A DNA stretch of 64,000 nt from a virus (IMGVR_UViG_3300028920_001939), one strand, 5' to 3'; numbered from the stretch's first letter, positions 18,229 through 43,122 are shown. Numbers and translations are program-made. Notes: generated by a model not told the origin, from the sequence alone.

Positions 18229-18246
18229 TTTTTTAGAGGTATTTTT

Positions 18247-21469: not shown

Positions 21470-21487
21470 AGGAGATATAAAATAAAA

Positions 21488-23596
21488 ATGAAAAATAATA
21501 AAAAGATTGTATGGTTCATTCTTGGTATTCTATTATTTTCAACTATCAATCTTTTTTATATAAATTCTTCCAAAGCGGATGGAGAAAGTTGGCTTACTGG
21601 TTGGACTTATCGAAAGGAGATAACAGTTAGCAATAAGATAGCTGATTATGCTACTATGATTAATGTTACAAAATCATCTGGCGGTGATGTAGATTGTGAA
21701 GGACATTGTAATGATAATTTTAGTGATTTGCGTTTTACACAAAGCGATGGAGAAACATTGATACCTCATTGGATTGATGAATTGGAGTATAGTAGTGGAA
21801 GTTATGCACATGTTTGGGTAAATAATACAAATGATGAAGCTACTCTTTATATGTATTATGGTAATGTTGGTGCAACAAGTACAAGTAGTGGAGATGATAC
21901 ATTTATAGTTTTTAGTTCATTTGAAAATGAATATGATGATGGATGGTCTTTGGATCAAGGTGGTGGTGGGTTTACAGATGTTACAAGTAGAGATGGTAGT
22001 TATTCTGTTGATTTATATGATAATGGTGCTGATGCGTGGTGTGTTCTTAATAGAGCAATTGATTTTGATTTTACATTAAATTGTTGGCTTTATATGGCTG
22101 ATGCTAATGCTGTTTGTCATATACGTTTTTGGGATACTTCTGGTGACCCTCCAGATGCAAATCTTATGTATGGTATTAGATTTGAAGATGATTTGTTGCG
22201 TGTATATGGCGATGTTGGTTATGATGCATATACACCTCATCACAATGAAGATAGTTGGTATTTTTTTGTTTTTGATGTTGATATTTCTGCTAATGATGTT
22301 TGGATGAAATACCGAGAAGATGGTAGTGATACTTGGTCTTATTATAATACAACTGCTTGGTCAGAAGGAAGTGCTGTAACAACATCTGAATTTTGGTTTA
22401 TGAGTGGTTATAATTCTCAACATGCATATTTTGATGCTTTCGTTTTAAAACCTTGGACTACTGGTACTGAACCAAGTTTCAGTTTCGGAAGTGAGGAAAC
22501 AGAGGGACCTGGTTGGACTAATTCTAATCCTTCGATTACTGCAGATAGTGAAAATCCTCCTGATACACAAACAGATGTAACAACATTACTTGCAAATTTC
22601 TATAATCATTTCAATATCAGCGTAACAGATGATGATAACACAAATCAATCTATCAATGTTACTTGGAGAGCTATAGTAGATAGTGAATGGAAAGATATTG
22701 GTTCTAATGCATCTTCAGAATGTAATTCTACCTTTTATTGTAATAATGTTAGTTGGATAGATAGTTATAATACTGAATATACTTGGAGTGTTAATGTATC
22801 AGATAACTGTACTTCTGGTAAAGGGTGGTCTAATCAAACATTTACTTTTACAACAATAGATTATACACCTGATGCACCGACCATTACAGGGGCAACTGCT
22901 GATAGTCCATCACAAATCACAATCACTTGGACAGATGATGATGAGGCAGATTCTACATACATTGAATGGGATTCTCAAAATGATGATAGTTGGAATCGTG
23001 GCGACCATAACGATACAACTATTAATGCAACATCTGGTTCTGAATCACATACAGGTTTATCATCTGGAACAACATATTATTATAAAGCGTGGTCTTGGAA
23101 TGCTTCGCAAGCAATTTGGAGTTCAGGTTCAAATATTGTTAGTGCTAAAACTCGTGGTTTAGTTTGGCACTCTAAAACATTTGGTGGTAGTGTTACTGTA
23201 ACAGGCGGTGAAGCAATAGATTGTGAATTAAATTCGACTAACTGGATTATAGGTGAGTTAGGAGTAGGAAATTCTGCTGTAAAGAATTTCAAATTCTGGC
23301 AGAATGGTACTGCTAATATAGATGTAGAAATCGGTGTAAGCAATATCAATTTTACATTTGTTAATTACACTGATTGGGATGCAAGTGGTTTCAATCAATT
23401 TTGCGCTAACTTTACAAACGACAGCTGGGTAACTGAAACGAATATACTTACAAGTCCATTCAATGGTACACTTAAATATAATTTTGCCCCAGGCAATTTT
23501 GATTTTGGTGTACGTATTTGGATGCCGAAAACTATGAGTGTTGAAAGTAAGAGAGAAGATTTCGAGGTGATTTTAACTGTTACAGAGCATACATGA
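21488..23596 (+). CDS. Secreted glycoprotein, DUF2341-like N-terminus plus FN3
   Basis: Signal peptide (SKA/DGE). WLTGWTYRKEITV resembles the DUF2341 hallmark. FN3 (...HTGLSSGTTYYYKAWSW). WHSKTFGGSVTV motif shared with the 25415 gene. Confidence 0.7.
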   Translation: MKNNKKIVWFILGILLFSTINLFYINSSKADGESWLTGWTYRKEITVSNKIADYATMINVTKSSGGDVDCEGHCNDNFSDLRFTQSDGETLIPHWIDELEYSSGSYAHVWVNNTNDEATLYMYYGNVGATSTSSGDDTFIVFSSFENEYDDGWSLDQGGGGFTDVTSRDGSYSVDLYDNGADAWCVLNRAIDFDFTLNCWLYMADANAVCHIRFWDTSGDPPDANLMYGIRFEDDLLRVYGDVGYDAYTPHHNEDSWYFFVFDVDISANDVWMKYREDGSDTWSYYNTTAWSEGSAVTTSEFWFMSGYNSQHAYFDAFVLKPWTTGTEPSFSFGSEETEGPGWTNSNPSITADSENPPDTQTDVTTLLANFYNHFNISVTDDDNTNQSINVTWRAIVDSEWKDIGSNASSECNSTFYCNNVSWIDSYNTEYTWSVNVSDNCTSGKGWSNQTFTFTTIDYTPDAPTITGATADSPSQITITWTDDDEADSTYIEWDSQNDDSWNRGDHNDTTINATSGSESHTGLSSGTTYYYKAWSWNASQAIWSSGSNIVSAKTRGLVWHSKTFGGSVTVTGGEAIDCELNSTNWIIGELGVGNSAVKNFKFWQNGTANIDVEIGVSNINFTFVNYTDWDASGFNQFCANFTNDSWVTETNILTSPFNGTLKYNFAPGNFDFGVRIWMPKTMSVESKREDFEVILTVTEHT

Positions 23597-23662
23597 AAAT
23601 AACGGGCAGGACGGCAATAGAAAAATCCTATCTTGTGGGGTAGTTGAAGAGGTGAAGAGCAT

Positions 23663-24157
23663 ATGAAAAACAAAATTGTGGTATTACTGGTCGTATCTGC
23701 TGTATTCGGTATGCTTGCTGCCCCTATAGGGTTTGCAAGTGATACAACAGTTACAGGTACATTCACAGCAACTGCATCATTAGATGTTGATGTAAACAGA
23801 TCTACAGCAGCATTTGGTACTATAACTGTAAGTGATCACTTTACTGTACCATTTAAATTAGTTAATAATGGTACTGTTGCTGCTGATGTAACTCAAGACC
23901 AAGCAGTAAAAGACAGCGGTGATATGACTATCGGAACCAATGGATCTCTAGCACAAGACGAGTATAGCGTTGTAATGAATGTATCAGAAGTTTGGACAGA
24001 TATAGGACAAAACGATAATACAGAAATAGCAGATGGATTAGCAGCATCCGGGGAAAAAGGTTATAATATAACAGTTTACATTGGTCCCTCGTTAAGTGCA
24101 GAATCACATGCAGATGAACAATTTAGCATAGATGTTACTGTAGCGGCTGATACATAA
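23663..24157 (+). CDS. Small secreted Thr/Val-rich protein
   Basis: Signal peptide (GFA/SD); 164 aa. Confidence 0.6.
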   Translation: MKNKIVVLLVVSAVFGMLAAPIGFASDTTVTGTFTATASLDVDVNRSTAAFGTITVSDHFTVPFKLVNNGTVAADVTQDQAVKDSGDMTIGTNGSLAQDEYSVVMNVSEVWTDIGQNDNTEIADGLAASGEKGYNITVYIGPSLSAESHADEQFSIDVTVAADT

Positions 24158-24168
24158 GGTGATATCAC

Positions 24169-24819
24169 ATGAAACATAAAATTTGCTTGATAATGATTCT
24201 TTTGTTATCAAGCATCTTATTTATTTCTAATGCTAACGCCGTAGATATATCATTAGTGAATAGTATAGGTATACACACGTTTGATTATGATGATACAGGA
24301 AATGTGTTAATATCAAAGGGTAGTGTTCCCATTGAAAATCAAGATAAAGAGAATAGCATTCATATAACATTATCAACATCAAATGATTTACTAAATACCG
24401 ATTTAGGTCCTAACAGAGAACCAAGAAAGCATAACATAAATCAAAAAGTTTATTTTTATCCGCTTGTTGATACAAGTTGGGTAGAGTTCGAAGAAGATAG
24501 TTTCACTATTCCACCCGCTTCTGTTAGAATCGCTAATTATACTTTGGTGATACCTGTAGATGAATTGCCATCATATGTAAACGCTACAAATGGTTTCATT
24601 GGTTACATAAAGATAATTTGTGGTTCAGAACCAACTTCGGGTAGTGGAGCAAGTGTAGGAGTAAAATACACATATAAACTATTCGTAATTTTTCACGAAA
24701 CATTTCCATTTCCAATTCCATTATACTATATCATTTCTGTAATAGTGCTTTCTATTGCTTTGATATATCTAGTAATCAGATTACGAATAAAAGATAAGAA
24801 GAAATCGAAACACCTTTGA
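24169..24819 (+). CDS. Secreted protein with C-terminal TM plus basic-tail anchor
   Basis: Signal peptide (ANA/VD). C-terminus FPFPIPLYYIISVIVLSIALIYLVIRLRIKDKKKSKHL, a sortase/archaeosortase-style tripartite sorting signal. Confidence 0.6.
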   Translation: MKHKICLIMILLLSSILFISNANAVDISLVNSIGIHTFDYDDTGNVLISKGSVPIENQDKENSIHITLSTSNDLLNTDLGPNREPRKHNINQKVYFYPLVDTSWVEFEEDSFTIPPASVRIANYTLVIPVDELPSYVNATNGFIGYIKIICGSEPTSGSGASVGVKYTYKLFVIFHETFPFPIPLYYIISVIVLSIALIYLVIRLRIKDKKKSKHL

Positions 24820-25418
24820 AGGAGGTCATTAGAATTAAGAAAATTACCGTTGCGGTAATACTGATACTGATAGTATCTTTGCCTGCAACATACGCAAGTA
24901 ATGAAGTAACTTGCTCTTTCAATGCAAGTGACCCAAATTATGGGAGTAGTGCAATAATGGAATTACCTGAACCTGAAAATAAATCTTGGAGAGATACAGA
25001 TAATCATTCAATGAAAGTTAAAGTATCAAATCAATTAGGTGAAACTATGGATGTATCATTCTATTGGCATAACAATCACACTCTTATAGGCGAAGATACA
25101 GATGTAGCTAACGATACATACGCAAACGTAACTGTCGGATTTAGTTATGTAGAATATGAAAATTATACTTGGTATGTAAATGTAACTGCAACGCACTACG
25201 ATAACCAAAGTGCAAAGTGGTGGTTTAAAGGAGAAGCACACAATTGGGATATCAATAGAGATGAAGATATTAATATAGTTGATGTAACAGGAGTTACAGC
25301 ACACTATGGTGAAACAGATGAAACACCACATTGGATTAGAGCAGATTGTGCAGAAAATGGTGATATAAATATTGTTGATGTTACAACAGTAACATCGCAT
25401 TATGGAGAGTCGTATTGA
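24816..25418 (+). CDS. Secreted glycoprotein ending in a double dockerin-like Ca-binding repeat
   Basis: Signal peptide (TYA/SNE). C-terminus WDINRDEDINIVDVTGVTAHYGE...CAENGDINIVDVTTVTSHYGESY, two DxNxDxxxNxxD loops each followed by a helix. Confidence 0.65.
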   Translation: MKEVIRIKKITVAVILILIVSLPATYASNEVTCSFNASDPNYGSSAIMELPEPENKSWRDTDNHSMKVKVSNQLGETMDVSFYWHNNHTLIGEDTDVANDTYANVTVGFSYVEYENYTWYVNVTATHYDNQSAKWWFKGEAHNWDINRDEDINIVDVTGVTAHYGETDETPHWIRADCAENGDINIVDVTTVTSHYGESY

Positions 25419-26365
25419 TGAAATATGTGAAATATTTAATTGTGATATTAGGATTATTCTTTATTTTATTATTATCTTATAGTGTTAGTGCTGAATGGCA
25501 TTCTCAAAGTTTCGGTGGAAGTGTTACAGTAGAACCTTGGATTAATAGTGCCCCTACTTTTAGTGATAATTCACCATCTGGTTCAGGCATAGAATTAAAT
25601 GTAAATTTATCAGTTGTTGTTACGGATGCTAATGGGAATGAATCAACAGTTTATTGGAAGATTGATACTGATTCAAATGTGAACGATACAAGTGTTGCAC
25701 ATATCAATACTTCTATTTTGAATGAAACTGCTTATTATAATTATTCTTCTGAAGTAGATTCGTATTCTACTACTTATTATGTTGGAGTATGGGCTAATGA
25801 TACACACGACAATTCTTCTATCTATTGGAGTTTTACTACAGTTAATCAACCTGAACCTTATGTTTATGATGAATCACCAACGAACGGTTCAACAGATGAA
25901 GTAACAACAGGTATAACATTATCAATTAATGTAACAGAATATCAAGGACAAAAATTCAATATCACTTGGTCAACGAATGCAAGTGCTTGGACTGCTTATA
26001 ATTCTTCTTGTGATAATGGTACTTTTACACAAGATATAACTTGGGCTGATACTGAATCTACTAAATATTGGTGGAATGTATCTGTTAATGATACTGCTGG
26101 AAATTGGAATAATAAAACATATCATTTTACTACAGGCAGTTTTGAATGGGGAAATTGGTCTGTTTATTGGAAGTTAGGTCAAACATCAATTTATGATGTT
26201 AATCTAAATATGGGTGTGAATATTGTTGATGTTACTTCTGTTACCAGTCATTATGGAGAATCTGGTGATCCAGGGTGGATTGATCAAGATATTAATAATG
26301 ATGGTGATATTAATTATATAGATGTAAGTGGTATCGCAAACCACTTTGGAGAAGATTATACTTGA
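25415..26365 (+). CDS. Secreted glycoprotein ending in a double dockerin-like repeat
   Basis: Signal peptide (VSA/EW). C-terminus ...NLNMGVNIVDVTSVTSHYGESGDPGWIDQDINNDGDINYIDVSGIANHFGEDYT. Confidence 0.65.
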   Translation: MMKYVKYLIVILGLFFILLLSYSVSAEWHSQSFGGSVTVEPWINSAPTFSDNSPSGSGIELNVNLSVVVTDANGNESTVYWKIDTDSNVNDTSVAHINTSILNETAYYNYSSEVDSYSTTYYVGVWANDTHDNSSIYWSFTTVNQPEPYVYDESPTNGSTDEVTTGITLSINVTEYQGQKFNITWSTNASAWTAYNSSCDNGTFTQDITWADTESTKYWWNVSVNDTAGNWNNKTYHFTTGSFEWGNWSVYWKLGQTSIYDVNLNMGVNIVDVTSVTSHYGESGDPGWIDQDINNDGDINYIDVSGIANHFGEDYT

Positions 26366-27696
26366 AGAAGGTGAAAATAATGAATAAAAAATCAATAAAA
26401 ATATTGATAATATCAATAATGCTGATTTTGTCTACAATTGTTTTAACAACAACTGTAAGTGCTGATGATGAAGCTTGGGTTGTATATGTAACTCCAGAAG
26501 AACAAAGTGTTATTAATGGTTCGAGTTTCGAGATAAGTTTAACTGCAAATAACACACAAGGCGGTTCAGGATCTGCAGTTGGTGGTTGGGAGATAACTCA
26601 ACTTAACTGGACTGTTGGTTTAGCCAACATAACATCAGCTACTGAAGGTAATTGGTTGTCAGATGTTGATTCTACTTTGTTTAGTGATGGTGATTTTCAC
26701 AACGCAAGTGGAAACTTAACTGATAACTATTGTGCTATTCTTGGTACTGGAGATACATCAGTAAATGGAACAATGGTGACTTATAATTTCACTACTTTAA
26801 AAACAGGTGTTATTGAAATAACATTTTATGGTTTATTTTCTTATGGAGAAAATGAAATATGGTTTGCCGAAACTACAGGCAACATAACGGTGTATAATGA
26901 TAGTGCGCCAGAAATAGTAGATAATTCTCCTGCTACTGGGACTACTGGAGATTTTTTTCTATTCAATGTTTCTGTTACTGATGATGTTGATAGTGCGCCG
27001 GCGCTTACGGTCAAAGTGAATTGGACGCATGACCCATCTTCAAGTAACGATTCAATGGAATATCAAGGTGGAACTTACTTTGAGAAACAGATAACATTGG
27101 ATAATAGTGTTTCAGATTTAGCATATCATATATATGTTAATGATACAGTTCCAAATGCAAATTATACTGAAGAACTTACAGCAGGTGTAACAGATAATGA
27201 TAAACCATTGAATAATACTAAAGTTAATGTTAGTGAAAAGTTTATGGGAGATGTAACAAAGATATTTAGTATTGATTGGACTAATATTTCTTGTAATGTT
27301 ACAGATAACATAGCTGTAACTGGAGTATATCTTAACATAACAATAAATGGTTCAATCTATGATAATACTTCTGTTGTAGATAATAAAACAGCAGATAACA
27401 AGTATTTTAGAAATAACAGTTTTGCAACGGTTGGAACATATGTTGTATTCTTGCATTCATATGATGCTGCTTCAAACAAGAATAATACTGAAAATCAAAC
27501 TTATGAGATATTCTATAAATGGGATTTAAATCAAGATAATGATGTAAACATAGTCGATATCACTTCCATAACAGGTGTTTATGGACAAACAGGTGATAAT
27601 AGATGGATAAAACAAGATTGTGCATCTACTGGTGATGGAGATATCGACATTGTTGATATAACTACTGTAACCGCCCATTATGGCGAAACATATTAG
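26362..27696 (+). CDS. Secreted glycoprotein ending in a double dockerin-like repeat
   Basis: Signal peptide (VSA/DD). C-terminus WDLNQDNDVNIVDITSITGVYGQTGDNRWIKQDCASTGDGDIDIVDITTVTAHYGETY. Confidence 0.65.
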   Translation: MKKVKIMNKKSIKILIISIMLILSTIVLTTTVSADDEAWVVYVTPEEQSVINGSSFEISLTANNTQGGSGSAVGGWEITQLNWTVGLANITSATEGNWLSDVDSTLFSDGDFHNASGNLTDNYCAILGTGDTSVNGTMVTYNFTTLKTGVIEITFYGLFSYGENEIWFAETTGNITVYNDSAPEIVDNSPATGTTGDFFLFNVSVTDDVDSAPALTVKVNWTHDPSSSNDSMEYQGGTYFEKQITLDNSVSDLAYHIYVNDTVPNANYTEELTAGVTDNDKPLNNTKVNVSEKFMGDVTKIFSIDWTNISCNVTDNIAVTGVYLNITINGSIYDNTSVVDNKTADNKYFRNNSFATVGTYVVFLHSYDAASNKNNTENQTYEIFYKWDLNQDNDVNIVDITSITGVYGQTGDNRWIKQDCASTGDGDIDIVDITTVTAHYGETY

Positions 27697-27705
27697 GGAA
27701 TGTAA

Positions 27706-30210
27706 ATGAAGAAGAATATAAGTAAATTGATAATACTAATGCTATTGTTTAACTTACTGTTTGTAGGATTTATATCTGAAGTAAATGCTACAGGCACCAC
27801 AACTTTAGTGATAGATCCAGAGAATACAAATGTAACTATAGGTGATTCTTTTATTGTTTATATCAATGCTACAATTGATACTGATGATGATATAGGTGGA
27901 TTTGAGATAACATTTTTCAATTTTACTTCTGGTGTTGTGAATATCACTAAAGTTAATGAAGGTGATGTGTTTGACGCATATCCATCTTTATTTGATCCAG
28001 GTGATATCTATAATGATACAGGTAACGTAACAGATTCTTATGGTGCTATATTGGGAGTTGAAAATGTATCTGGTGCCAAATCTCTTGTTTATTATAATAT
28101 ATTAGCATACGGCGTAGGCGTATCACCTATCAATTTTAGTGCTGTTTTATCTTATAGTGAAAATACTTTTATTCATACTGATAGTTTTGGTAACATAACT
28201 GTTCATCCAGAATCTATTACAGGCGCAACTGCAACTAATCATTCACATAACAGAATCAATTTAACTTGGGATACGCCATTCGGGAATGGAACTGATAAAT
28301 GTGTAGTATTCGCCAATTCTACTGGAAGTGCTGCTTCAAGAAGTCCAGGTGATGAAATTTACAACGGAACAAGTGATCATTATAATCATACAGGTTTAGA
28401 TCCTAATCAACAATGGAATTATTCTTTCTGGGGTTGGAATGAAACTGCTAGATTGTATTCAATGCTATTTCAACAAGATTCTAACACAACACAAACTTCT
28501 CCAGGTACTAATACTTGGATAATTTTAGGTGATGCAACACCGGCAACTGGTTCAACTTACGCTTATAAAACATCGCAAGAAGTTAATATCACTATAATAG
28601 GCGGTTATCTTACAGATACAATACAACCTATAACACATGGAGCTTTTGGGGGAGCATCAGATGAATTGCCACATCAATATATCTGTTATATGAATATAAC
28701 ATTTGGCGCAACACAATATAATGAAACAGAAGATTATATTTTAGATAGATACAATGGTGTTGTTGATTGGTCTCCTGCTGGAGATGAACCAGCGCCTGGT
28801 GCATCTTATTCAGCAAATTACACATACATATACAATACAGATTCATCATTCAAGTATTGGATTAACACAACAGCAGGGCAAAAAACAGAATCATCTGTTA
28901 ATTCTGGTTATAAAACTTATACAATGAGTGGTCTTACAGGTGGAACTGAATGGTGGAATGTTACTGCTGTATTTGATGGGAATAAAACCCAAGGCAATTA
29001 TTCGTTTGATATCAATCGAAAACCAAGAGGCGGTGGGGATGGAGGAGATTGGAATGAGGATCCTGAAAATTCAGCGCCTTCTGTTTCTGTATCAACAGCA
29101 TTAGCAGTAGATGTTGAAGATTTAGATGGCGATACTGTAAATGTAACTTTCTATTGGCAAAACGATACTCGAATAGATAACGATACTGTTGCTGGAGCAG
29201 GAACTGCTTCTGTTAATCCTTCAACTTTAGATTACAATACAGAATACGGCTGGTATGTGATTGCTGATGATTTTACTGATACAACAAGAGGACCCACAGC
29301 TGGGTATTGGACTTTTAATACATCTTCGTTGGGTATCAATCTAACAAAAGAATGGGTTTTAAATCCTGAAAACAACACTATAAGAAGTTGGATTAATGTA
29401 ACTAATACTGGTACTGCTAACTTAACAGGCGTTAATATATGGGATAGAGAATGCCACGGCTTGAACCTTGTTAGTTATAATAATTCAGTTGATTTTTCAG
29501 GCAACGGTCATTGGAATTGGGAAGCTGCTTATCTTAACATATCAGGTTATGATAATCACACTTACAAGATAACTATGTTACATGAATATTATACACTTGT
29601 GCCTTTAGCAAATGGTAGTGAAGTTTGGAATTATGCAAACGTATCACATCTCGGTCAAACATCTGGACAGAATGTATCTGGCTACTTTGTGGGATTTACT
29701 GCAACTAAAGAAGCAAACGTATCAAAGATGAATAGCACAATACTTGATGTAACGTGGTGGATAAATATCACTAATTCAGGTGATTTCAATCTTACAAATG
29801 TAACAGTAAACGAAACCTATGATGATTTTATCAATTATACAAGTAGTAATGTTGATCCTTTTGATGAATCTAATGTTACGTTTGTTATACCATTTATTAA
29901 GCCAAGTGAAACATTTAGTTTAATGGTTAATATATCTGCGACACCTAACTCAATAACTAATGGTTCAACAGTTTATAACAATATCACTATACGTTCTGAC
30001 CAGTTAGAAGAACAAACATTTAGTGAATCTTTGAGTTATGGTGGACGTACTGAAACTTTGAGAATTACATACGACACGACCTTGACCGATGTATCAGTAT
30101 ATGGAGATTCGTTGGTAATTATAATAGGCGTATTACTAACAATCTCTGCTTTGCTGATAGTAGTTGGATTGTTGTATAAATTCGGTTATCTCGGGAGAGG
30201 TGAGCAATAG
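27706..30210 (+). CDS. Large secreted glycoprotein (834 aa) with FN3 and C-terminal TM anchor
   Basis: Signal peptide (VNA/TG). FN3 (...NHTGLDPNQQWNYSFWGW). Many sequons. C-terminal TM LVIIIGVLLTISALLIVVGLLYKFGYLGRGEQ. Confidence 0.7.
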   Translation: MKKNISKLIILMLLFNLLFVGFISEVNATGTTTLVIDPENTNVTIGDSFIVYINATIDTDDDIGGFEITFFNFTSGVVNITKVNEGDVFDAYPSLFDPGDIYNDTGNVTDSYGAILGVENVSGAKSLVYYNILAYGVGVSPINFSAVLSYSENTFIHTDSFGNITVHPESITGATATNHSHNRINLTWDTPFGNGTDKCVVFANSTGSAASRSPGDEIYNGTSDHYNHTGLDPNQQWNYSFWGWNETARLYSMLFQQDSNTTQTSPGTNTWIILGDATPATGSTYAYKTSQEVNITIIGGYLTDTIQPITHGAFGGASDELPHQYICYMNITFGATQYNETEDYILDRYNGVVDWSPAGDEPAPGASYSANYTYIYNTDSSFKYWINTTAGQKTESSVNSGYKTYTMSGLTGGTEWWNVTAVFDGNKTQGNYSFDINRKPRGGGDGGDWNEDPENSAPSVSVSTALAVDVEDLDGDTVNVTFYWQNDTRIDNDTVAGAGTASVNPSTLDYNTEYGWYVIADDFTDTTRGPTAGYWTFNTSSLGINLTKEWVLNPENNTIRSWINVTNTGTANLTGVNIWDRECHGLNLVSYNNSVDFSGNGHWNWEAAYLNISGYDNHTYKITMLHEYYTLVPLANGSEVWNYANVSHLGQTSGQNVSGYFVGFTATKEANVSKMNSTILDVTWWINITNSGDFNLTNVTVNETYDDFINYTSSNVDPFDESNVTFVIPFIKPSETFSLMVNISATPNSITNGSTVYNNITIRSDQLEEQTFSESLSYGGRTETLRITYDTTLTDVSVYGDSLVIIIGVLLTISALLIVVGLLYKFGYLGRGEQ

Positions 30211-30272: not shown

Positions 30273-31073
30273 ATGAAAAAGGTAAAAATAATAGAAGTAA
30301 AGCCGATGAAAATAAATTGGGTAAACGAAAGACATGATACAGATGGTGATATGATACCAAACTACTTTGATTGTAATCCTTGGAATCCTAATGAGCAAGG
30401 TTGGTTACACGATACTATAGATAAATTAAAAGATAGACATTCTGAAGTTAAGCAAATGAAAAAAGAAAGAAAAGGTAAAGAAGCTTATTTTTCTGCTGCT
30501 AAACAAGATGCACAACAACATGCACAAGTAGAAGCTGAAATACAAAAACAAGTTGATAGAGCAAAAAAACCTGTTTATCTATATGCAAAGATGGGAGATC
30601 CAAGATTGAAAGGTGGATTAAAATGGTATTTTATTGGTGGTTACGAAAGAGGCAATATCAATCAAGTTGTAAGAGAGTTATCATCACGACAAAATGTGCA
30701 CGGTGTTGAATCATCTGATAGAGCAGATATGGAAGGTTATCTTAATAGAAGGGATTTCGGTGAAGCAGTTAAGAAATATGGTAGTGAAAGATGGACTGGT
30801 AAAGATAAAGAAGGTAAAAAAGTTTATAGTGGTTGGAAAGAAAATGTAGAAAGAGGTTTAATGTCAAAAGATAAACAAGAAAGATTGAAAAGATTGAAAT
30901 CTTATCAAAAGAGGTTAGCTATTGAAAGAGCAATCACCGGTGCGCCACAAGTTATTGTGCATACAGGTGATGAATTTAATAGTATAGTAAGTAATAGGCG
31001 TCCTAAAAAAAGGATGATTTATCAAACGTATCCCCCAAGAATGAGAGGGGAAGAAAATATAGGAGGTGAATAG
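30273..31073 (+). CDS. KIIPVK-DTDGDG-DCxPWNP N-terminal family protein (266 aa)
   Basis: MKKVKIIEVKPMKINWVNERHDTDGDMIPNYFDCNPWNPNEQ, a TSP3-like Ca-binding motif in the N-terminus. The rest is Lys-rich. Confidence 0.55.
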   Translation: MKKVKIIEVKPMKINWVNERHDTDGDMIPNYFDCNPWNPNEQGWLHDTIDKLKDRHSEVKQMKKERKGKEAYFSAAKQDAQQHAQVEAEIQKQVDRAKKPVYLYAKMGDPRLKGGLKWYFIGGYERGNINQVVRELSSRQNVHGVESSDRADMEGYLNRRDFGEAVKKYGSERWTGKDKEGKKVYSGWKENVERGLMSKDKQERLKRLKSYQKRLAIERAITGAPQVIVHTGDEFNSIVSNRRPKKRMIYQTYPPRMRGEENIGGE

Positions 31074-31388
31074 ATGAAAATGAAAAAAATAAAAATAATA
31101 CCAGTAAAGTGGATACCAGACAAGCATGACACAGATGGAGATGGTGTACCAAACTACAAAGATTGTGTACCTTGGGACTCAAAAAGGCAACACTTTAAGC
31201 CATTCGGTGTTTATTCTATAGGTAACAACAGATACGCAGTATATCAACAGCAATTAATGGGTGCTGGTTATGTAAAGAGAGGCAAACCATTATTTGTTGG
31301 CACCGAATACGAAGCGAAGCAGTTTATAAATCAGATACCCGTAAATCCAGAAAGTTACGACGCTGAAACATCTATATTCGAGAGGTAA
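31074..31388 (+). CDS. KIIPVK-DTDGDG-DCxPW family protein (104 aa)
   Basis: MKMKKIKIIPVKWIPDKHDTDGDGVPNYKDCVPWDSKRQH. Confidence 0.5.
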   Translation: MKMKKIKIIPVKWIPDKHDTDGDGVPNYKDCVPWDSKRQHFKPFGVYSIGNNRYAVYQQQLMGAGYVKRGKPLFVGTEYEAKQFINQIPVNPESYDAETSIFER

Positions 31389-31394
31389 TAGAAA

Positions 31395-31577
31395 ATGAAG
31401 GCGAAATTCACAATAGAATTAGAAGCAGATAAAGAAGAAATAAATGATTTCGTGAAGAACATAAATCATTTTGTGCATAGACGTGATAATATACTCATAG
31501 ATGTAAAACCAGTTGGCGGTTATATACCAAGATTCTATTTACCCAAAAGAAATTATTTAAAAATAAAAGGGAGGTGA
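31395..31577 (+). CDS. Hypothetical small protein
   Basis: 60-aa ORF. Confidence 0.3.
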   Translation: MKAKFTIELEADKEEINDFVKNINHFVHRRDNILIDVKPVGGYIPRFYLPKRNYLKIKGR

Positions 31578-31583
31578 TAATAT

Positions 31584-31733
31584 ATGGCAAGAAAAAGAAT
31601 TGTAGCAACAAGTGCTAAATCAGCTCGTAGAAAAGCAGGTGGAAAAACAATTGTTGTTACAAAAGTCAATTATATCAAAGGTTCTAAAAAAGGCAACAAA
31701 AAGACCTATGATGTAACTACTAAAAAGAAATAA
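31584..31733 (+). CDS. Small basic protein (possible nucleic-acid binding)
   Basis: Not in the track (49 aa). MARKRIVATSAKSARRKAGGKTIVV..., pI clearly basic. GGGAGGTGA SD upstream. Confidence 0.35.
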   Translation: MARKRIVATSAKSARRKAGGKTIVVTKVNYIKGSKKGNKKTYDVTTKKK

Positions 31734-31782
31734 GGATTTATTTATAGTTTGAACAAAAAAATAAATAGGAGGTAGTAGCCAA

Positions 31783-31887
31783 TGAAAAAGAAAAATAAAT
31801 ACACAAAAGCCGAACATAAAAAAGCAGCTAAAAAAGCTTGGCGTACACGCCGAAAGAAATACGGCAAAAACGGCGTACGAGGTTAAG
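31783..31887 (+). CDS. Very basic mini-protein (34 aa)
   Basis: MKKKNKYTKAEHKKAAKKAWRTRRKKYGKNGVRG. AGGAGGT SD upstream. T-rich terminator-like tract (gcttttttgtttg) follows. Confidence 0.3.
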
Positions 31888-32031
31888 CTTTTTTGTTTGT
31901 AAGTGGGGTTGATAAAACCCTTCTTCTGTTGTCAATCCCATTTACCTGCTAAAATATCAACGAAAAGTATATACTTAACGTGTTAGAAATCCATTACCGT
32001 GGATCTTTATATCAGTAAAGTTGAAAAAACT

Positions 32032-32454
32032 ATGGAATATAGAAAAATTAATTCAAAATACATTGATGATATTCTCAAACTTGATAGTAGATTTGGATCT
32101 CCTTGGTCAAGAGGACTTTATTTAGATAGATTATCAATGTTTCCCGATTTATCATATGGTGTTTTTAAAAATGGTAAACTTATTGGGTTTATTTTAGGCA
32201 AAAAAGAACCTATTGGTAATATCAAGATTAGTAGATTGGTTGTTGATGAGAAATACGAAGGTCGTGGCATAGGCGGACATTTAGTTGATGTTTTAACTAA
32301 AAAAGCTGATGAGAAAACGAAGAAGATGAGATCTATTATTCGTGAAAGTAACAAACGCTCAATCAAGTTGCATAAGCACCGTGGTTTTGAGATTTATGAT
32401 TATCATACTTATAAAGATGGTGAAAAAGGAATTAAATTTTTAAAGAGGTTATGA
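32032..32454 (+). CDS. GNAT-family N-acetyltransferase
   Basis: Acetyl-CoA binding motif A (LVVDEKYEGRGIGGHLVDVL = h..hhV...Y.G.GIG..Lh). Track start 31999 is GTG; the ATG at 32032 is more likely. Confidence 0.55.
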   Translation: MEYRKINSKYIDDILKLDSRFGSPWSRGLYLDRLSMFPDLSYGVFKNGKLIGFILGKKEPIGNIKISRLVVDEKYEGRGIGGHLVDVLTKKADEKTKKMRSIIRESNKRSIKLHKHRGFEIYDYHTYKDGEKGIKFLKRL

Positions 32455-32455
32455 A

Positions 32456-32632
32456 ATGAAATGGTTTGTAATGAAAAAAGTGGATGAAATATCACATTAT
32501 GGTTATAGTGAAATAGTTTATCATAAAGCAAGTAAGTATTTCTCAACTAAAAAGAAAGCGCAAAATGAAATGAAGAAAATGAAAAAGAAACATCCAAAAA
32601 CATATTATAAAATAGGTGGTGAACCTGAATGA
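32456..32632 (+). CDS. Small basic protein
   Basis: Not in the track (58 aa). ...KKKAQNEMKKMKKKHPKTYYKIGG. Confidence 0.3.
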   Translation: MKWFVMKKVDEISHYGYSEIVYHKASKYFSTKKKAQNEMKKMKKKHPKTYYKIGGEPE

Positions 32633-33021
32633 AGAAGATAAAAGTTATACCAATTAAATTGAATTTAGATACAGATGGCGATGGAGTTAAGGATTGTAAG
32701 GACTGTAAACCTTTCAACCCATATAAGCAACACACGAAGAAATGGAAAGAAAAGATGTTGAAAGAAGAACGATTCAAACGAGAACACGCTGATGATATAA
32801 TATGGCATTTAGATAGGGGATTTTCTGAAGGACAAGCATTAACAAGAATGAAAAAGAAACGAAGTTCTAATCTTGAAAAACTAATATCAAGGCACGAAAG
32901 AATATCAAAGATACCTAATGCAACTGCTTTTTGTGGTGATGATATAAGAAGAACAAAAGATGTTGTTATGTATATTCACGATAATAAATTGAAAGATTTA
33001 GGTTCAGAGATAAGATTATGA
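32629..33021 (+). CDS. KIIPVK-DTDGDG-DCKPFNP family protein (130 aa)
   Basis: MKKIKVIPIKLNLDTDGDGVKDCKDCKPFNPYKQH. ATGA overlap. Confidence 0.5.
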   Translation: MKKIKVIPIKLNLDTDGDGVKDCKDCKPFNPYKQHTKKWKEKMLKEERFKREHADDIIWHLDRGFSEGQALTRMKKKRSSNLEKLISRHERISKIPNATAFCGDDIRRTKDVVMYIHDNKLKDLGSEIRL

Positions 33022-33272
33022 AAACGATAAAGAGATTGGGATTGGAGAAAGAGTTTGAAGCATGGAAAAAAGATATACTTGATAAAAGACCTTTGGTTTT
33101 GGATGATTTTAAGATTGGTGATAAAGTATTGTTTGTGAGAGGAGATATACCTAATAGTCCATTTTTGAATAAGAAAGGAAAAGTTATAGGAAAAACTGGT
33201 AACCTTCTTCTTGTAGACCTAGAAGGATATGGAGAAGGTAACTTTTATCCTTATAAATTTAAGTTGATATAA
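33018..33272 (+). CDS. LGLEKEF-KOW family protein, array copy 1
   Basis: MKTIKRLGLEKEFEAWKKDI followed by the KOW/SH3-like motif IGDKVLFVRGDIPNSPFLNKKGKVIGK. Confidence 0.6.
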   Translation: MKTIKRLGLEKEFEAWKKDILDKRPLVLDDFKIGDKVLFVRGDIPNSPFLNKKGKVIGKTGNLLLVDLEGYGEGNFYPYKFKLI

Positions 33273-33457
33273 TGACCCAAAGAAAACGTGTTAAGATAGA
33301 ACAAACACCGAATTATATCATATACAGATATGGCTATCTTAATGATGCTCGAAAGAAACAAGAACAGTTGGAGAATGAATATGGTTACGAATTTGATATA
33401 TACAAAGAGAAATTTAAAGGCGGTTATGATTATTTTATAGCGGAGCCCATAAGATGA
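33272..33457 (+). CDS. Hypothetical small protein inside the array
   Basis: 61-aa ORF. Tyr-rich. ATGA-type overlap. Confidence 0.35.
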   Translation: MTQRKRVKIEQTPNYIIYRYGYLNDARKKQEQLENEYGYEFDIYKEKFKGGYDYFIAEPIR

Positions 33458-33747
33458 GTAAAGATACAATTAAGCGATTAGGATTAGAAAAAGAATTCAA
33501 AAAGTGGATGATAGATATAAATAAACCTGTTAAATTTAGAGCAGGCGATAGAGTTATGATAACAGGTAAAGCAGAATCACACAAACATGGATTTACTGAT
33601 AGTTGGGTTAGAGAAATGGATAACACGATAGGAACTGTGGGCACAATAAGAGAAATTGATGAAAGTGGTAATGTCGCAGTATTTTTTACATATGAATATA
33701 ACTATTTTTGGTATCCTAAATTTGTTTTGAAAAAGGTTGAAAGATGA
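33454..33747 (+). CDS. LGLEKEF-KOW family protein, array copy 2
   Basis: MSKDTIKRLGLEKEFKKWMIDI then AGDRVMITGKAESHK. Confidence 0.6.
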   Translation: MSKDTIKRLGLEKEFKKWMIDINKPVKFRAGDRVMITGKAESHKHGFTDSWVREMDNTIGTVGTIREIDESGNVAVFFTYEYNYFWYPKFVLKKVER

Positions 33748-34151
33748 AATTCATAAGAGCAACAGATAGCAGTAAATACAAGAAATCCCGTAGATTAACC
33801 TATATGAAACCATCTGAATTTCTCGATTTATCACTTCCACAAAAACCCACTAAAAGTAAATACGATTCTCAATATTACGAAAAAGAATCACTTGATAATC
33901 TCGAAAAGCGTATGAAGCGTGGGTTAGAGATAGATGCGCCTTCTTTTGATGTTGATATCAAACACAAGGCAATCGTTGGTCACGCTGGACGACATCGTGC
34001 TTTTACAGCACATAAGTTGGGAATATCAAAGATACCTGTTTATGTGTATTACAAAGAAGGTCCCTATTATATTGAGCAGTTAGGCACAAATATCAAAGAT
34101 GTTGAGAAATTTAAACCGAAAAGTGAGTTGTTTGGGTTGCATTTGAAATGA
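33744..34151 (+). CDS. ParB/Srx-like domain protein (tentative)
   Basis: AIVGHAGRHRAFTAHKLGISKIPVYV resembles the G(R/H)HR..A motif of ParB N-terminal/sulfiredoxin domains. Called by eye only. Confidence 0.35.
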   Translation: MKFIRATDSSKYKKSRRLTYMKPSEFLDLSLPQKPTKSKYDSQYYEKESLDNLEKRMKRGLEIDAPSFDVDIKHKAIVGHAGRHRAFTAHKLGISKIPVYVYYKEGPYYIEQLGTNIKDVEKFKPKSELFGLHLK

Positions 34152-34402
34152 AAACTATAAAAAGATTAGGATTAGAAAAAGAGTTCAAGAATTGGTTAAA
34201 AGATATTAAAGATAATCCTTTTAGAAGAAATCAAAGACTTGAATTGATGAATATGGAAGATATGCCAAGAAGAATGTTTAAAGGTCAAATGGTACGAGTT
34301 GTTGCAACAGATTATGGAGATAATGTTTTACTTTATAGTGAAGGCAGAACTTTTAGATTTCCAAAAAAAGAGATGAAGAAGCATTTTAAGGTGTTATATT
34401 GA
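34148..34402 (+). CDS. LGLEKEF-KOW family protein, array copy 3
   Basis: MKTIKRLGLEKEFKNWLKDI...KGQMVRVV. Confidence 0.6.
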   Translation: MKTIKRLGLEKEFKNWLKDIKDNPFRRNQRLELMNMEDMPRRMFKGQMVRVVATDYGDNVLLYSEGRTFRFPKKEMKKHFKVLY

Positions 34403-34662
34403 AAAAGAATATTATCAAGAAACTTGGTATGGAAAAAGAATTCAAAAATTGGGTTAAGAATATAGAATCAAGACAAGGTATAGATATCGGTTCAAGAGTT
34501 GAGTTAATTGAAAATTTTAGAATATATCCTATAGGAGCAAAAGGCACCGTTAAAGGTTCTAAACCTTCTAGATTAGAACCTGGAATAAGATTACTTACAG
34601 TATCACTTGATAATTATGAAACTACACATATTTATGATAAGAGGTTCAAGTTGATAAAATGA
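34399..34662 (+). CDS. LGLEKEF-KOW family protein, array copy 4
   Basis: KKLGMEKEFKNWVKNI...GSRVELIENFRIYPIGAKGTVKG. Confidence 0.6.
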   Translation: MKKNIIKKLGMEKEFKNWVKNIESRQGIDIGSRVELIENFRIYPIGAKGTVKGSKPSRLEPGIRLLTVSLDNYETTHIYDKRFKLIK

Positions 34663-34955
34663 AGAAAAAGAAAAACACTTTGAAGCGATTGGGTATGGAA
34701 AAAGAATTTAACAATTGGGTTAAAGATATTCGTTCAAAGCCAAGAATGCAAGTTGGTTCAAGAGTAAGAATAAAAGAAAATGTTAAAAGATATAATTTAA
34801 CAACACCATTTAGTGAAGGTGTTATTGTTGAATATGAGCCGGTTACTTCATCAATGTGGATAAAATTTGATAAACTTACTTGCCCAAGAGAAAGATTAAG
34901 TGAAACATCACGAAGGAAATTTCAGATTGAAAAAAGATATGTTGAATTGATATGA
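34659..34955 (+). CDS. LGLEKEF-KOW family protein, array copy 5
   Basis: LKRLGMEKEFNNWVKDI...VGSRVRIKENVK. Confidence 0.6.
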   Translation: MKKKKNTLKRLGMEKEFNNWVKDIRSKPRMQVGSRVRIKENVKRYNLTTPFSEGVIVEYEPVTSSMWIKFDKLTCPRERLSETSRRKFQIEKRYVELI

Positions 34956-35254
34956 AGAAAAGCAACACGTTAAAACGATTGGGATTAGAAAAGGAATTTG
35001 CTAATTGGTTAGTTGATATCAGAAAACGAGAAAGCGGATTTAAAATAGGGGATAAAGTTTTTTTGAATATACCTAATAAATCTTTTGAAGATTATTGGAA
35101 ATATTATGGTGTTCGTAGTGGATCTGAAGGAACTATTGAAAGAGATGCAGGAAAATGTTCAATTCATGGAGAAAATAAAGAATGTTATCAAATTGACTTC
35201 GGTAGACGTATGTTATATGTGCCAAAAAATCAGTTGAGGAGGCGAAATTATTAG
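34952..35254 (+). CDS. LGLEKEF-KOW family protein, array copy 6
   Basis: LKRLGLEKEFANWLVDI...IGDKVFLNIPNK. Confidence 0.6.
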   Translation: MKKSNTLKRLGLEKEFANWLVDIRKRESGFKIGDKVFLNIPNKSFEDYWKYYGVRSGSEGTIERDAGKCSIHGENKECYQIDFGRRMLYVPKNQLRRRNY

Positions 35255-35504
35255 CAAAAATACATTAAAAAAACTTGGATTAGAAAAAGAATTCGCAAAT
35301 TGGAAGAAAACAATTAACGATAAAGTTGAATTATCATTTGATAAACTTACTGTTGGTACTAAATTTGAAGTAATAAAAGGACCCTTTAAAGGAGAAAGAG
35401 GTATAATTAAGAGTAGAACTCCTTCTATTTGTTATTGTGATATTGGTGAAGATGTTGATGTTACTTTAGAAAAAGAAACTTTTGATTATATTAAGATTTT
35501 ATAA
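35250..35504 (+). pseudogene. LGLEKEF-KOW family, array copy 7, lacking a canonical start codon (ATT in place of ATG)
   Basis: Frame reads ...I-I-S-K-N-T-L-K-K-L-G-L-E-K-E-F-A-N-W-K-K-T-I...VGTKFEVIKGPFKGERGIIK (textbook KOW GxxKGxxGxV). There is no ATG/GTG/TTG between the upstream in-frame stop at 35235-35237 and the motif. ATT sits where the paralogues have ATG, overlapping the upstream stop. Confidence 0.45.
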
Positions 35505-41507: not shown

Positions 41508-42719
41508 ATGAACGAGCAAAATTCCCAAAAAAAGCAATTGAGTTATCAAGATGTGAAAAACATCTTAGAGAATTTTAAAGATAAGAAAGATTTTGATATT
41601 AAAGTTGATAAATTAGGTGCTATTACTGTAAAGTATAACGGTAAAAATCAAGAGTATTTTACCGAAAGAAATTACGGCATAGCACACGGCTATCAAAAGA
41701 GTGGTAGTTGGAATACTGATAAGTTACGAGATTATCAATCTTTAGAAAGAGCAATTAACAATCTTTTTGATGATAATTATCAACATAGTGTTATACCTAA
41801 AGAAATAACAGTAGAACACAAACCTGTTGATACATCTGAATACAAATCTCTTATACCTGAAAACTTTAAGTATTTTACAAGAGAGTTATGTGGCAACTTA
41901 ACTGATTATGAAGTTTTTGAGAGAGCACTTGAGCAAGGTAAGAATGTGTTACTTATCGGTCCTACAGGTTCAGGTAAAACTACTTTACCACGATATTATT
42001 GTGCACAACATAAAACACCTTACATTAGAGTATCACTAAACGGCGGTTGCACAGTAGAAGATTTAGTTGGACATTACGTTATCAAAACTGATGAACACGG
42101 TAATCAAGTAACAGAGTGGGTTGACGGACTTTTAACAATTGCTTGCCGTAAAGGGTATATAGTTGTTTTAGATGAGATAAACGCCGCTTCAAGTGAAATC
42201 TTATTCAAACTGAATTCTTTACTTGATGATGAACGTATCTTAATCCTTTCAGAAAAGGACGGCGAAATAGTAAATCCACACCCAGAGTTTCGTTTTATCG
42301 CCACTTGTAATCCAACAGAACTGGGTTATTCTGGAACAAAAGAACTTAATGAGGCATTACTTGATAGATTTCAAATGATTATGTATGTTGATTACAACGA
42401 GCAAGTTGAACGTAAAATCTTGAAACAGATACTAAAACTTGAAGATGTTGATAAAGTCCAGAATTTCGCCAAAGCTGTAAGAAGTGCTTACACTAACGCT
42501 GAGATACTTACACCACTATCTACAAGAACACTTATCAATCTCGCCGATTTAATGAATCAGGGAATGACAGATTTAATAGAAAACAGGTTCAAAGAATCAG
42601 AGAGAACGATAATATCTGACCAGATAGATATGCACATTAAAACGAAAAACAAACTAAACGAAGATAATGAGGGAGTTGGTAACGCTGATGATACCACTCC
42701 AACTACTCCCTCATCTTAA
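41508..42719 (+). CDS. MoxR-family AAA+ ATPase, CobS-like
   Basis: Walker A LLIGPTGSGKTTL. Walker B VVLDEINAA. Sensor region RFIATCNP...LLDRF, typical of AAA_5/CbbQ/CobS proteins. Confidence 0.7.
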   Translation: MNEQNSQKKQLSYQDVKNILENFKDKKDFDIKVDKLGAITVKYNGKNQEYFTERNYGIAHGYQKSGSWNTDKLRDYQSLERAINNLFDDNYQHSVIPKEITVEHKPVDTSEYKSLIPENFKYFTRELCGNLTDYEVFERALEQGKNVLLIGPTGSGKTTLPRYYCAQHKTPYIRVSLNGGCTVEDLVGHYVIKTDEHGNQVTEWVDGLLTIACRKGYIVVLDEINAASSEILFKLNSLLDDERILILSEKDGEIVNPHPEFRFIATCNPTELGYSGTKELNEALLDRFQMIMYVDYNEQVERKILKQILKLEDVDKVQNFAKAVRSAYTNAEILTPLSTRTLINLADLMNQGMTDLIENRFKESERTIISDQIDMHIKTKNKLNEDNEGVGNADDTTPTTPSS

Positions 42720-42738
42720 TCTTTTTGAGGTCGATTAA

Positions 42739-42918
42739 ATGAAAACTGTAAAAGAGATACATAAGGGCTATCAAACAAGAACAACAATATTTATAATGTT
42801 ATCTATACCTATTGCTATTGGTGGATATATTTTAAATAATAATTTTATATTGGGATATGGTATAGCATCACTTATTGTTGCATTCTCTTTATATCCTAGC
42901 CCAAAAGATTGTAGGTGA
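42739..42918 (+). CDS. Small 2-TM protein
   Basis: Not in the track (59 aa). Confidence 0.3.
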   Translation: MKTVKEIHKGYQTRTTIFIMLSIPIAIGGYILNNNFILGYGIASLIVAFSLYPSPKDCR

Positions 42919-42924
42919 AATAAG

Positions 42925-43122
42925 ATGAAAAGAAATGAGTTGTTAGATTGTTTATTTAGTTACGGTTTATCATTAGGTATTATATGTATTGCTGTTTTTG
43001 CTATACTATTATCATTGAAACTTGATAGTGTTATACCACAGTTTGCTTTTCTTGGTTTATATGGTGTTGGTAGTGCATCATTAGCTATTGGAATGTTATC
43101 AGATATTGTGTTGAGTAGATAA
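42925..43122 (+). CDS. Small 2-TM protein
   Basis: 65-aa hydrophobic ORF between the AAA+ and vWA genes. Confidence 0.35.
   Translation: MKRNELLDCLFSYGLSLGIICIAVFAILLSLKLDSVIPQFAFLGLYGVGSASLAIGMLSDIVLSR

Follow-up and report, generated by a model that had tools for sequence, protein, structure and literature searches.

In bacteriophage T4, the internal proteins are diverse, and all that they have in common is an N-terminal capsid-targeting sequence (PMC3012670). The polyvalent proteins of phages have genes adjacent to those for structural proteins; their packaging and injection is predicted, and has been shown for a processed form of DdrB of P1 (PMC5512222). A further point of comparison is the thrombospondin type 3 (TSP3) repeat, a calcium-binding unit that occurs in tandem arrays with disulfide pairs between the repeats. 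The present work deals with a protein unit encoded in a 64,000-nucleotide stretch of viral DNA (IMGVR_UViG_3300028920_001939, hereafter the window). The unit appears to be a portable tag of some 40–45 residues, composed of a basic/hydrophobic leader, which is specific to the virus, and a 22-residue motif with a TSP3-like loop and one cysteine. It is conserved and modular, it stands at N-termini or at domain junctions, it carries virus-specific leaders and precedes diverse payloads, and the proteins that carry it are depleted in cysteine. We propose, with a probability of about 40%, that this tag depends on calcium and its cysteine and serves to dock cargo proteins into the virion.

The unit in the window and its conservation

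The initial annotation of the window had described five proteins that share an N-terminal module. All five reading frames (Table 1) have good ribosome-binding sites and are called as genes in a public ENA record. The module is complete in three of the proteins, p30273, p31074 and p32629; p9057 has the motif half and p4402 the leader half only. The consensus originally quoted has to be amended for p30273, which reads IIEVK and DTDGDM instead of IIPVK and DTDGDG. The N-terminal ~40 residues of the three complete copies are alike, with BLASTP E values of 1.5e-14, 1.9e-12 and 2.9e-8. Beyond these residues BLASTP finds no significant similarity among them, so the proteins are indeed otherwise unrelated. 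A profile made from the three copies and run against the six frames of the window adds only p9057 (residues 54–83, E = 0.0025) and p4402 (E = 0.056). Thus, both of the weaker copies reported earlier are recovered, the latter without DCxP and with only a degenerate 'IDKDG'. p9057 is also similar to p32629 (BLASTP E of 3.8e-5). Its N-terminus has a leader-like VKTIKVKTISL and then a ~40-residue basic insert, and the motif lies at residues 54–75, so the extreme N-terminal placement claimed for all copies does not hold.

The regular expression D.D.D.{6}DC.P occurs four times in the window against an expectation of 1.4e-4, and is absent from 300 residue shuffles. The four real copies have an ungapped, fixed spacing, in which six residues separate the third Asp from the Asp-Cys pair. 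Likewise, a leader expression matches p4402 and the three strong copies and nothing else in the whole window. The core nucleotide identity among the window copies is only 58–67%; the copies are therefore old, and recent duplication or gene conversion as the source of the similarity is ruled out.

A 12-kb contig from the same sample (locus L253) is syntenic with window 24.2–32.5 kb at 71–74% nucleotide identity. Two orthologues of p30273, P0049 and P0047, retain the leader and the motif. P0049, which belongs to L253, is 81% identical to p30273 over the first 47 amino acids (counted by hand), whereas the best local alignment of the two, covering 89% of the protein, has 36% identity. The concern that the motif might be a low-complexity coincidence lost in homologues is thereby answered. 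Orthologues of p31074 in L139 and L253 keep the module, with a Gln-to-His replacement in the L253 copy. A frame at 11892–12149 of L253, near the end of the contig and of the syntenic block, has a leader and motif of the p32629 type and a different payload. The same pattern of conservation is seen in L139 and L240. The module is real and under selection.

Downstream of its motif, p30273 continues with 'WLHD' and then a long charged helical payload. The family to which it belongs is found in many loci and consists of the motif, QG(W/I/F)xH, an R/K/E-rich helix and a basic tail. The motif cysteine is the sole cysteine of both p30273 and p31074. In p9057, similarity to the first payload of large multidomain relatives extends ~50–85 residues beyond the motif, the alignments to L229, L215, L161 and L223 reaching residues 122–159; library scans identified no domain in it. 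A search for full-length homologues of p31074 returned only p31074 itself. Pfam, PHROGs and NCBIfam assigned none of the five proteins to a family and gave only sub-threshold TSP_3 matches.

The core of the unit reads D-x-D-G-D-G-V-P-(N/D)-x-x-D-C-(Q/E)-P-x-N-x-(M/K)-(R/K)-Q-(D/G), and its spacing is invariant. In 12 of 12 first copies Asp is found at positions 1, 3, 5 and 12 and Asn or Asp at position 9. This ligand pattern and the cysteine are likewise kept in 20 profile matches that had not been selected by pattern. At the unforced positions of 170 metagenome frames, G4 is present in 78%, G6 in 74%, P8 in 47% and Q14 in 58%; in the tail, M19 is found in 43% (Met or Lys in 59%), Arg or Lys at position 20 in 87% and Asp or Gly at position 22 in 93%, the 100% conservation of the motif Gln being forced by the search pattern. 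Judged by these residues, the first half is a canonical DxDxDG loop of the TSP3/EF-hand type with ligands at positions 1, 3, 5, 9 and 12.

A resemblance to TSP3 had been noted from the outset, and it proves to be confined to the first 12 residues. The viral unit and TSP3 repeats share the loop D-x-D-G-D-G-(V/I)-P-(N/D)-x-x-D with its acidic positions 1, 3, 5, 9 and 12, and downstream of it Cys, Pro, Asn and Gln follow in the same order. However, the viral Cys directly follows the last Asp of the loop, giving DCxP where TSP3 has DxCP with the Cys one residue later, the distance from Asn to Gln is one residue shorter, and the tail (M/K)(R/K)Q(D/G) is not TSP3-like. The viral unit has one cysteine in place of the disulfide pairs of TSP3. 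It never forms tandem arrays, occurring singly or in 2–4 copies 100–300 residues apart, and its carriers are made in the cytoplasm without signal peptides. Pfam TSP_3 (PF02412) scores it at 11–16 bits, always under the 25-bit cutoff: 14.0 bits for p31074, 10.9 bits for p30273 and 14.6–16.2 bits for orthologues, with no match on p32629, p9057 and p4402. At E < 1e-3 the model is matched by one of 102 and two of 65 tagged relatives. Since it stays below the Pfam threshold and lacks both the arrays and the cysteine pattern of TSP3, the unit is not filed here as a member of TSP_3; by sequence, it is a divergent single TSP3-like repeat.

A 12-copy profile run against all PDB sequences matched only four proteins at E ≤ 10, all with DxDxDG calcium loops: the OmpA TSP3 repeats of Capnocytophaga gingivalis (5wtl, E of 6e-9), COMP (3fby, E of 0.024), C2 toxin component II (E of 1.6) and an adhesin (E of 4). 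Every alignment is limited to the first half of the motif, kDtDGDgVPnefD. The AlphaFold2 model of p31074, based on a 23-sequence alignment, has a predicted local distance difference test score of 74–85 over residues 1–40, which are predicted to form an irregular loop with no regular secondary structure apart from one 3-residue turn. Foldseek compares this model with 5wtl repeats alone in the PDB, at a root-mean-square deviation of 0.3–0.4 Å over 16–17 columns; with E ~9 the match is non-significant.

A scan of cellular genomes with the Gln anchor left out returned mostly bacterial repeat proteins, among them extracellular ones of Saprospiraceae and Myxococcales. In these cysteine-rich bacterial repeats, D-x-D-G-D-G-V-x-(N/D)-x-x-D-C-x-P-x-N is identical to the viral motif, spacing included, as in 'DSDGDGVCNNQDCQPNNPAFPATPGTxCN' and 'DxDGDGVxxxxDCxPxNxxxYPGAxExCD'. 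The bacterial units then continue with PG...C, which brings a second and a third cysteine, and are strung in long arrays in large secreted proteins, whereas the viral unit ends in (M/K)(R/K)Q(D/G) and has no further cysteine. The bacterial repeats may be called 'MopE-like' after Pfam PF11617, to which no match was obtained.

Dockerins resemble the viral unit in the 22-residue length of their units and in a calcium loop of 12 residues, D-x-(D/N)-x-D-G, and they serve as portable docking tags on varied enzymes. However, a dockerin consists of two duplicated loop-helix (F-hand) segments, whereas here there is a single loop with no duplicated segment, a Pro stands three residues past the loop, and the AlphaFold2 model predicts no helix. 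Pfam dockerin models have no match among the window proteins or the tagged relatives. Dockerin and intein-like readings were put aside, their defining features being absent. In the way it is used, the unit is similar to targeting tags and to docking units such as dockerins, without the defining feature of either.

Occurrence, leaders, payloads and cysteine content

The module was sought elsewhere with degenerate DNA patterns of fixed spacing. In IMG/VR these patterns found five other viral contigs (L003–L006 and L130, with L129 as another part of the contig that contains L003), and protein-based locus searches of IMG/VR with the three-copy alignment and with p9057 returned no related loci. In L004, L005 and L006 the tagged proteins are small and K/R/E-rich, and the motif lies 25–40 residues from the start. 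L003 is otherwise unrelated to the window and encodes a frame of 1146 amino acids with three copies and one of at least 640 amino acids, running off the end of the locus, with two; here the copies lie between domains, which include GNAT (Pfam), HExxH and ParB-like domains and DGxHR/EGRHR motifs. A pattern scan of metagenomes gave at least 119 loci with the motif. Taken together with IMG/VR, there are at least 170 motif frames in at least 123 loci, with a median GC content of 31.5%.

A profile search of 5.8 billion proteins returned 20 small proteins at 42–62 bits, all with the complete viral motif; below them comes a gap and then bacterial TSP3 repeats at 29 bits. An exhaustive search of 1.84 billion representatives of clusters at 50% identity gave 2252 matches at E ≤ 1e-3 and 194 at E ≤ 1e-10. 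Among the best 150 of the 2252, 139 were newly returned, and 123 of these 139 have the viral-type motif: 71 in a single copy (median length 96 amino acids) and 52 in 2–4 copies (median 550 amino acids). The other 16 comprise one protein of 64 amino acids without the motif and 15 large ones (692–3377 amino acids) with 3–22 DxDxDG loops and no viral second half, which we take to be bacterial-type TSP3 arrays. The motif is thus present in at least 120 protein families of uncultured low-GC viruses, and probably in over a thousand. No Pfam, PHROGs or NCBIfam family covers it. We found no paper containing strings of the motif sequence, nor one on TSP3 together with archaeal viruses. The module is a variant of a known motif class, put to a new use and widespread in poorly known viruses.

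The sole viral-type copy in the cellular-genome scan (L069) is located at 1948–1992 of a contig from a Thermoplasmata metagenome-assembled genome, JAGGZU010000127.1, which is 3.8 kb long, has 33% GC and carries a gene for an HNH nuclease as well. This contig probably derives from a virus, and what it suggests about a host is at best weak, too weak to name one. A match in Pseudomonas phage PaBG (E of 0.1) was rejected as a chance match.

In its placement the motif is either close to the N-terminus of small proteins or repeated 2–4 times between the enzyme domains of large ones. As 52 of the 123 top representatives have copies between domains, it is not confined to N-termini in the wider family, as had been supposed. 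The first copy nevertheless begins within 100 amino acids of the earliest Met in 90% of frames, its median position being 39 in the metagenome frames and 25 in the representatives, and no complete protein has it in its last third.

The leader is stereotyped within each virus and differs from one virus to another. MKK(I/V)K(I/V)IP(V/I)K is used in the window, L139, L246 and L253; the commonest leader is MxxIDKxIKK(I/M)(I/L)GKxKxRGGKN, and M(A)FPGFNNKKxS and ...KRSLFG are further types. Leader identity is 56% within a locus vs. 24% between loci, and that of the free motif positions 66% vs. 39%. Over the 40 residues past the motif, identity is at the random level, 13.5% within and 15% between loci. 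The payloads are diverse: 156 payload segments fall into 106 BLAST clusters, 87 of them singletons. The largest cluster, with 25 members from 20 loci, contains a domain with 'EGRHRA.AA..G...IPV', the profile of which weakly matches the ParB/Srx-fold protein SbnI (E of 0.013) and sulfiredoxin (E of 0.19). When 102 + 65 tagged proteins were scanned with Pfam, most had no match, and a few members were found to contain GNAT, DUF6782 and M64 metallopeptidase, Tpt1/KptA, ParB_N or HNH_repeat domains. GNAT, metallopeptidase, Tpt1/KptA and ParB_N domains occur in P0051 and other representatives. The payload of p31074, 'KYxIYDxxxGxFLVGYxFxTxxEAxxFI' (31188–31388), recurs in L139, L157, L173 and L136, behind three leader types in different viruses; therefore, payloads move between tags.

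Many of the internal copies in multidomain proteins have the sequence 'GASL(E/Q)KQQEW' 18–20 residues upstream. A second leader, '(K/R)LG(L/M)EKEFxxW', is shared at residues 5–13 by nine other frames of the window, seven of which form a tandem block of proteins of 77–100 amino acids each; one second-leader frame has an SH3_15-like domain. GASL(E/Q)KQQEW resembles this second leader and precedes the calcium-loop motif in L003, L176, L186 and L229, so the two leaders may be halves of one junction.

Outside the motif, cysteine makes up 0.21% of residues in the 123 representatives and 0.32% in the 170 metagenome frames. In untagged frames of the same loci and strand it accounts for 1.09% (binomial p ~7e-62) and in the window's own genes for 0.97%, so that the tagged proteins are depleted 3–5 times. 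No cysteine other than that of the motif is present in 88 of 123 representatives (72%) and 119 of 170 metagenome frames (70%), and many multidomain members have exactly as many cysteines as motifs. Some bacteria are known to exclude cysteine from the proteins that they export. The depletion suggests that the carriers are exposed to oxidising conditions for part of their life and that the motif cysteine has a specific job.

What the unit may do

The tag fronts unrelated payloads (small basic proteins and ParB/Srx-like, GNAT, metallopeptidase and Tpt1/KptA-like domains), being repeated for each domain in the large relatives. We suggest that it would dock this cargo onto a virus-encoded partner, with the result that the cargo is built into the particle. 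Outside the cell, loading with calcium and possibly a disulfide formed by the lone cysteine would keep the cargo attached; once a new cell is infected, its cytoplasm, which is reducing and poor in calcium, would open the latch and free the cargo. Calcium binding, the location in the virion and the latch are what we infer from the features described above, and the indirect evidence as a whole is consistent with the role in virion incorporation or calcium-dependent interaction suggested at first.

The neighbourhood of the tag genes points in the same direction. They directly follow genes for sequon-rich proteins with a signal peptide or anchor, or for small hydrophobic proteins, which are probably structural; this is the case in the window (after 27706–30210) and in L240, L253, L144, L004, L130, L199 and L246. 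They are often in tandem, with five in L144, two in L128 and three in the window. In L127 and L128 they are flanked by genes for large tagged multidomain proteins on one side and by replication genes on the other.

Both phage systems mentioned at the beginning offer parallels. Like the polyvalent proteins, the large relatives join ParB-like, GNAT, metallopeptidase and Tpt1/KptA domains in one chain near probable structural genes, and payloads of these kinds agree with cargo known to be delivered by virions. However, no TSP3 or calcium module or linker is mentioned in PMC5512222, the hallmark MuF, MPTase-PolyVal and portal-linked domains are absent according to Pfam from the tagged proteins scanned, the metallopeptidases among them being of the DUF6782 and M64 families or recognised by HExxH motifs, and the viruses considered here appear to be archaeal. 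Like the T4 capsid-targeting sequence, the unit is a short N-terminal tag on diverse, fast-evolving, small and often basic proteins of one virus; the T4 tag, in contrast, has ~10 residues, among them neither a calcium loop nor a Cys, is cleaved off by the prohead protease and shows no sequence similarity to the unit. The comparison is one of analogy, and both packaging and cleavage of the tagged proteins are putative.

Several points weigh against a docking tag of this kind. Calcium binding by the loop is a prediction from its residues. Both p9057 and the L253 orthologue of p31074 have His in place of the conserved Gln. The depletion in cysteine could partly reflect the charged, low-complexity composition of the payloads. 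Tag genes are also found immediately ahead of groups of small genes and replication genes, a position that would suit early, non-structural proteins equally well, and packaging alone does not need a tag before every domain of one polypeptide. PHROGs and Pfam identified no capsid/head, portal, terminase or prohead protease gene in the window, and blastn and tblastn found the motif in no deposited phage genome and in no cultured virus. The analogy with T4 and P1 may not transfer.

The unit could instead be a processing junction, at which a protease of the virus or the host, or Cys autocatalysis, cuts the multidomain precursors and which acts as a removable propeptide in the small proteins. In the large relatives the 2–4 motifs lie exactly between domains, the highly conserved end of the motif looks like a P3–P1' site, several tagged proteins have metallopeptidase domains (HExxH in L003, DUF6782, M64), and an M28-like peptidase (7867–9060) adjoins p9057; self-processing of polyvalent proteins was proposed by Iyer et al. 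(PMC5512222). We nevertheless hold this to be unlikely. A cleavage site alone needs no complete 12-residue calcium loop, His in place of Gln is awkward for a P1 residue, most tagged proteins have a single domain and fewer than 120 amino acids, and no protease consistently co-occurs in the loci examined; virus-specific leaders and the scarcity of cysteine are left unexplained. It is quite improbable, in our estimate, that the unit targets membranes or surfaces, with an amphipathic basic leader and a calcium loop forming a bridge to acidic lipids or the cell envelope, so that carriers, which need not be delivered cargo, would gather at the membrane of the host or the virus. The commonest leader, MxxIDKxIKKIIGKxKxRGGK, is amphipathic and polybasic, many membrane proteins and secreted glycoproteins are encoded beside the tag genes, and solved DxDxDG loops occur in envelope-associated proteins such as those with OmpA TSP3 repeats. 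The window leader KIKIIPVK, however, has no obvious amphipathic helix, nor does AlphaFold2 predict one, and internal copies between enzyme domains are hard to explain in this way. Free calcium in the cytoplasm is also too low to load such loops.

Alternatively, the tagged proteins may be early intracellular proteins, the motif of which binds one conserved host factor, to which it would recruit the varied effector domains, and has no role in the particle or in calcium binding. Tag genes belong to blocks of small genes that evolve fast and precede the replication genes, and the payloads are enzyme types used for host takeover. The leaders, however, differ between viruses and are homogenised within a genome, which argues for a virus-encoded rather than a conserved host partner; moreover, the calcium-ligand positions are all strictly kept, and the cysteine depletion suggests an oxidising setting. 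We give this explanation a slim chance. Finally, the unit might be a structural spacer only, a stray single TSP3-like repeat spread by duplication without any specific function. The weak Pfam TSP_3 matches and the bacterial extracellular repeats with the same first half and spacing would agree with this. It seems very unlikely, since the module is far more conserved than the rest of the protein (81% vs. 36%), there is a strong bias in its position, the bacterial repeats lack the virus-type second half, which is itself conserved, and the motif cysteine is the only one in ~70% of the proteins.

Whatever its function, a single TSP3-like loop that serves as a stand-alone unit with a near-sole cysteine is an unusual use of a common extracellular motif. 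The module provides a sequence handle on 2252 clusters, nearly all without a Pfam match, whose carriers are uncultured low-GC viruses of sediments and saline lakes, probably archaeal. If the docking tag does direct proteins into particles, it would mark the set of effectors that these viruses deliver; the strategy of T4 and P1, in which one tag is shared by variable cargo, would have arisen independently with a calcium/cysteine module, and a short peptide would be at hand for loading foreign proteins into such particles. A bolder version, which we regard as rather doubtful, is that this is the first virion-addressing signal in archaeal viruses, a two-key calcium/disulfide latch that would fasten effectors to a structural partner, with the multidomain relatives as strings of individually latched effectors; 'LGLEKEFxxW', which in other viruses is fused upstream of the motif, would form the other half of this addressing system.

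Genome setting and neighbouring genes

The window has 32% GC, all its genes are on the + strand and tightly packed, and no tRNAs were found in it. It matches the ENA metagenome contig ERZ27252253 k141_4173328 of 101,246 bp, with window position 31074 corresponding to position 83498 of the record and 61210 to 12778. The two mappings overlap by ~390 bp in the region of window 48433–48822, and the window spans the contig ends. As it wraps around these ends, the genome is circular or terminally redundant, with a terminal repeat, and has a size of ~101 kb.

Among the replication genes (Table 1), the RFC small subunit scores above the curated NCBIfam cutoff (322 vs. 303 bits) and is accompanied by a Hef/XPF-like nuclease and a weak PriL-like match; a family-B polymerase and a resolvase are encoded just past the end of the window. 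To judge from their sequences, these replication genes are of archaeal type. The source is probably an uncultured archaeal virus or virus-like element.

Table 1. Positions of the tagged genes and other features in the window
Feature	Position	Strand	Details
p30273, 266 amino acids	30273–31073	+	leader MKKVKIIEVKPMKINWVNERH; Ca-loop/Cys motif DTDGDMIPNYFDCNPWNPNEQG at nucleotides 30336–30401
p31074, 104 amino acids	31074–31388	+	leader MKMKKIKIIPVKWIPDKH; motif DTDGDGVPNYKDCVPWDSKRQH at nucleotides 31128–31193; small payload domain
p32629, 130 amino acids	32629–33021	+	leader MKKIKVIPIKLNL; motif DTDGDGVKDCKDCKPFNPYKQH at nucleotides 32668–32733; basic payload
p9057, 879 amino acids	9057–11696	+	GTG start; motif DADKDGYFNITDCKPLDPKKHG at nucleotides 9216–9281
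p4402, 54 amino acids	4402–4566	+	leader only, KKVKIIPVE at nucleotides 4423–4449; degenerate loop STIDKDGIETVYD, no DCxP
Second-leader frame	4899–5267		
Second-leader frame	6846–7514		
Second-leader frame	33018–33272		
Second-leader frame	33454–33747		
Second-leader frame	34148–34402		
Second-leader frame	34399–34662		
Second-leader frame	34659–34955		
Second-leader frame	34952–35254		
Second-leader frame	~35235–35501		
Archaeal-type replication genes (by sequence)	54087–55699, 52920–53900		RFC small subunit, Hef/XPF-like nuclease, weak PriL-like match
Sequon-rich large proteins	11992–30210	+	N-terminal signal/anchor segments; 3–6 NxS/T sequons per 100 amino acids

The large sequon-rich proteins have recognisable BNR_4, DUF2341, fn3 and DUF4815 domains, and in those encoded at 11992–15753 and 27706–30210 the most hydrophobic stretch is C-terminal. 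Small hydrophobic proteins are also encoded within 11.9–30.2 kb. The genes at 17311–17562 and 17575–17865 specify paralogous proteins of 83 and 96 amino acids with two hydrophobic helices each. Both products begin with 'MKTRFGFIDPGAIMG', which has a pilin-like look (class III signal-like), and are conserved in L246; they may be major particle or membrane proteins.

Three tiny genes at 31395–31886, located between two tagged genes, are conserved in L253, and the products of 31584–31733 and 31782–31886 are extremely basic and protamine-like. The region 22–3045 encodes the C-terminal two thirds of a 1573-residue protein, the gene start being 2.1 kb upstream of the window. This protein contains the HExxH motif MRHELTHSL as well as stretches that are hydrophobic or resemble coiled coils, and does not bear the calcium-loop tag. 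The protein encoded at 7867–9060, directly upstream of p9057, strongly matches PHROG 4191, 'peptidase' (E of 1.8e-67), and shows the pattern HxD...GADD, similar to that of M28/M20; there was no match to it in Pfam, NCBIfam or the PDB. At 41508–45182, a GvpN/CobS-like AAA+ ATPase is followed by two small genes and then by a VWA-domain protein (CobT_C/VWA), a pair that is common in large phages.

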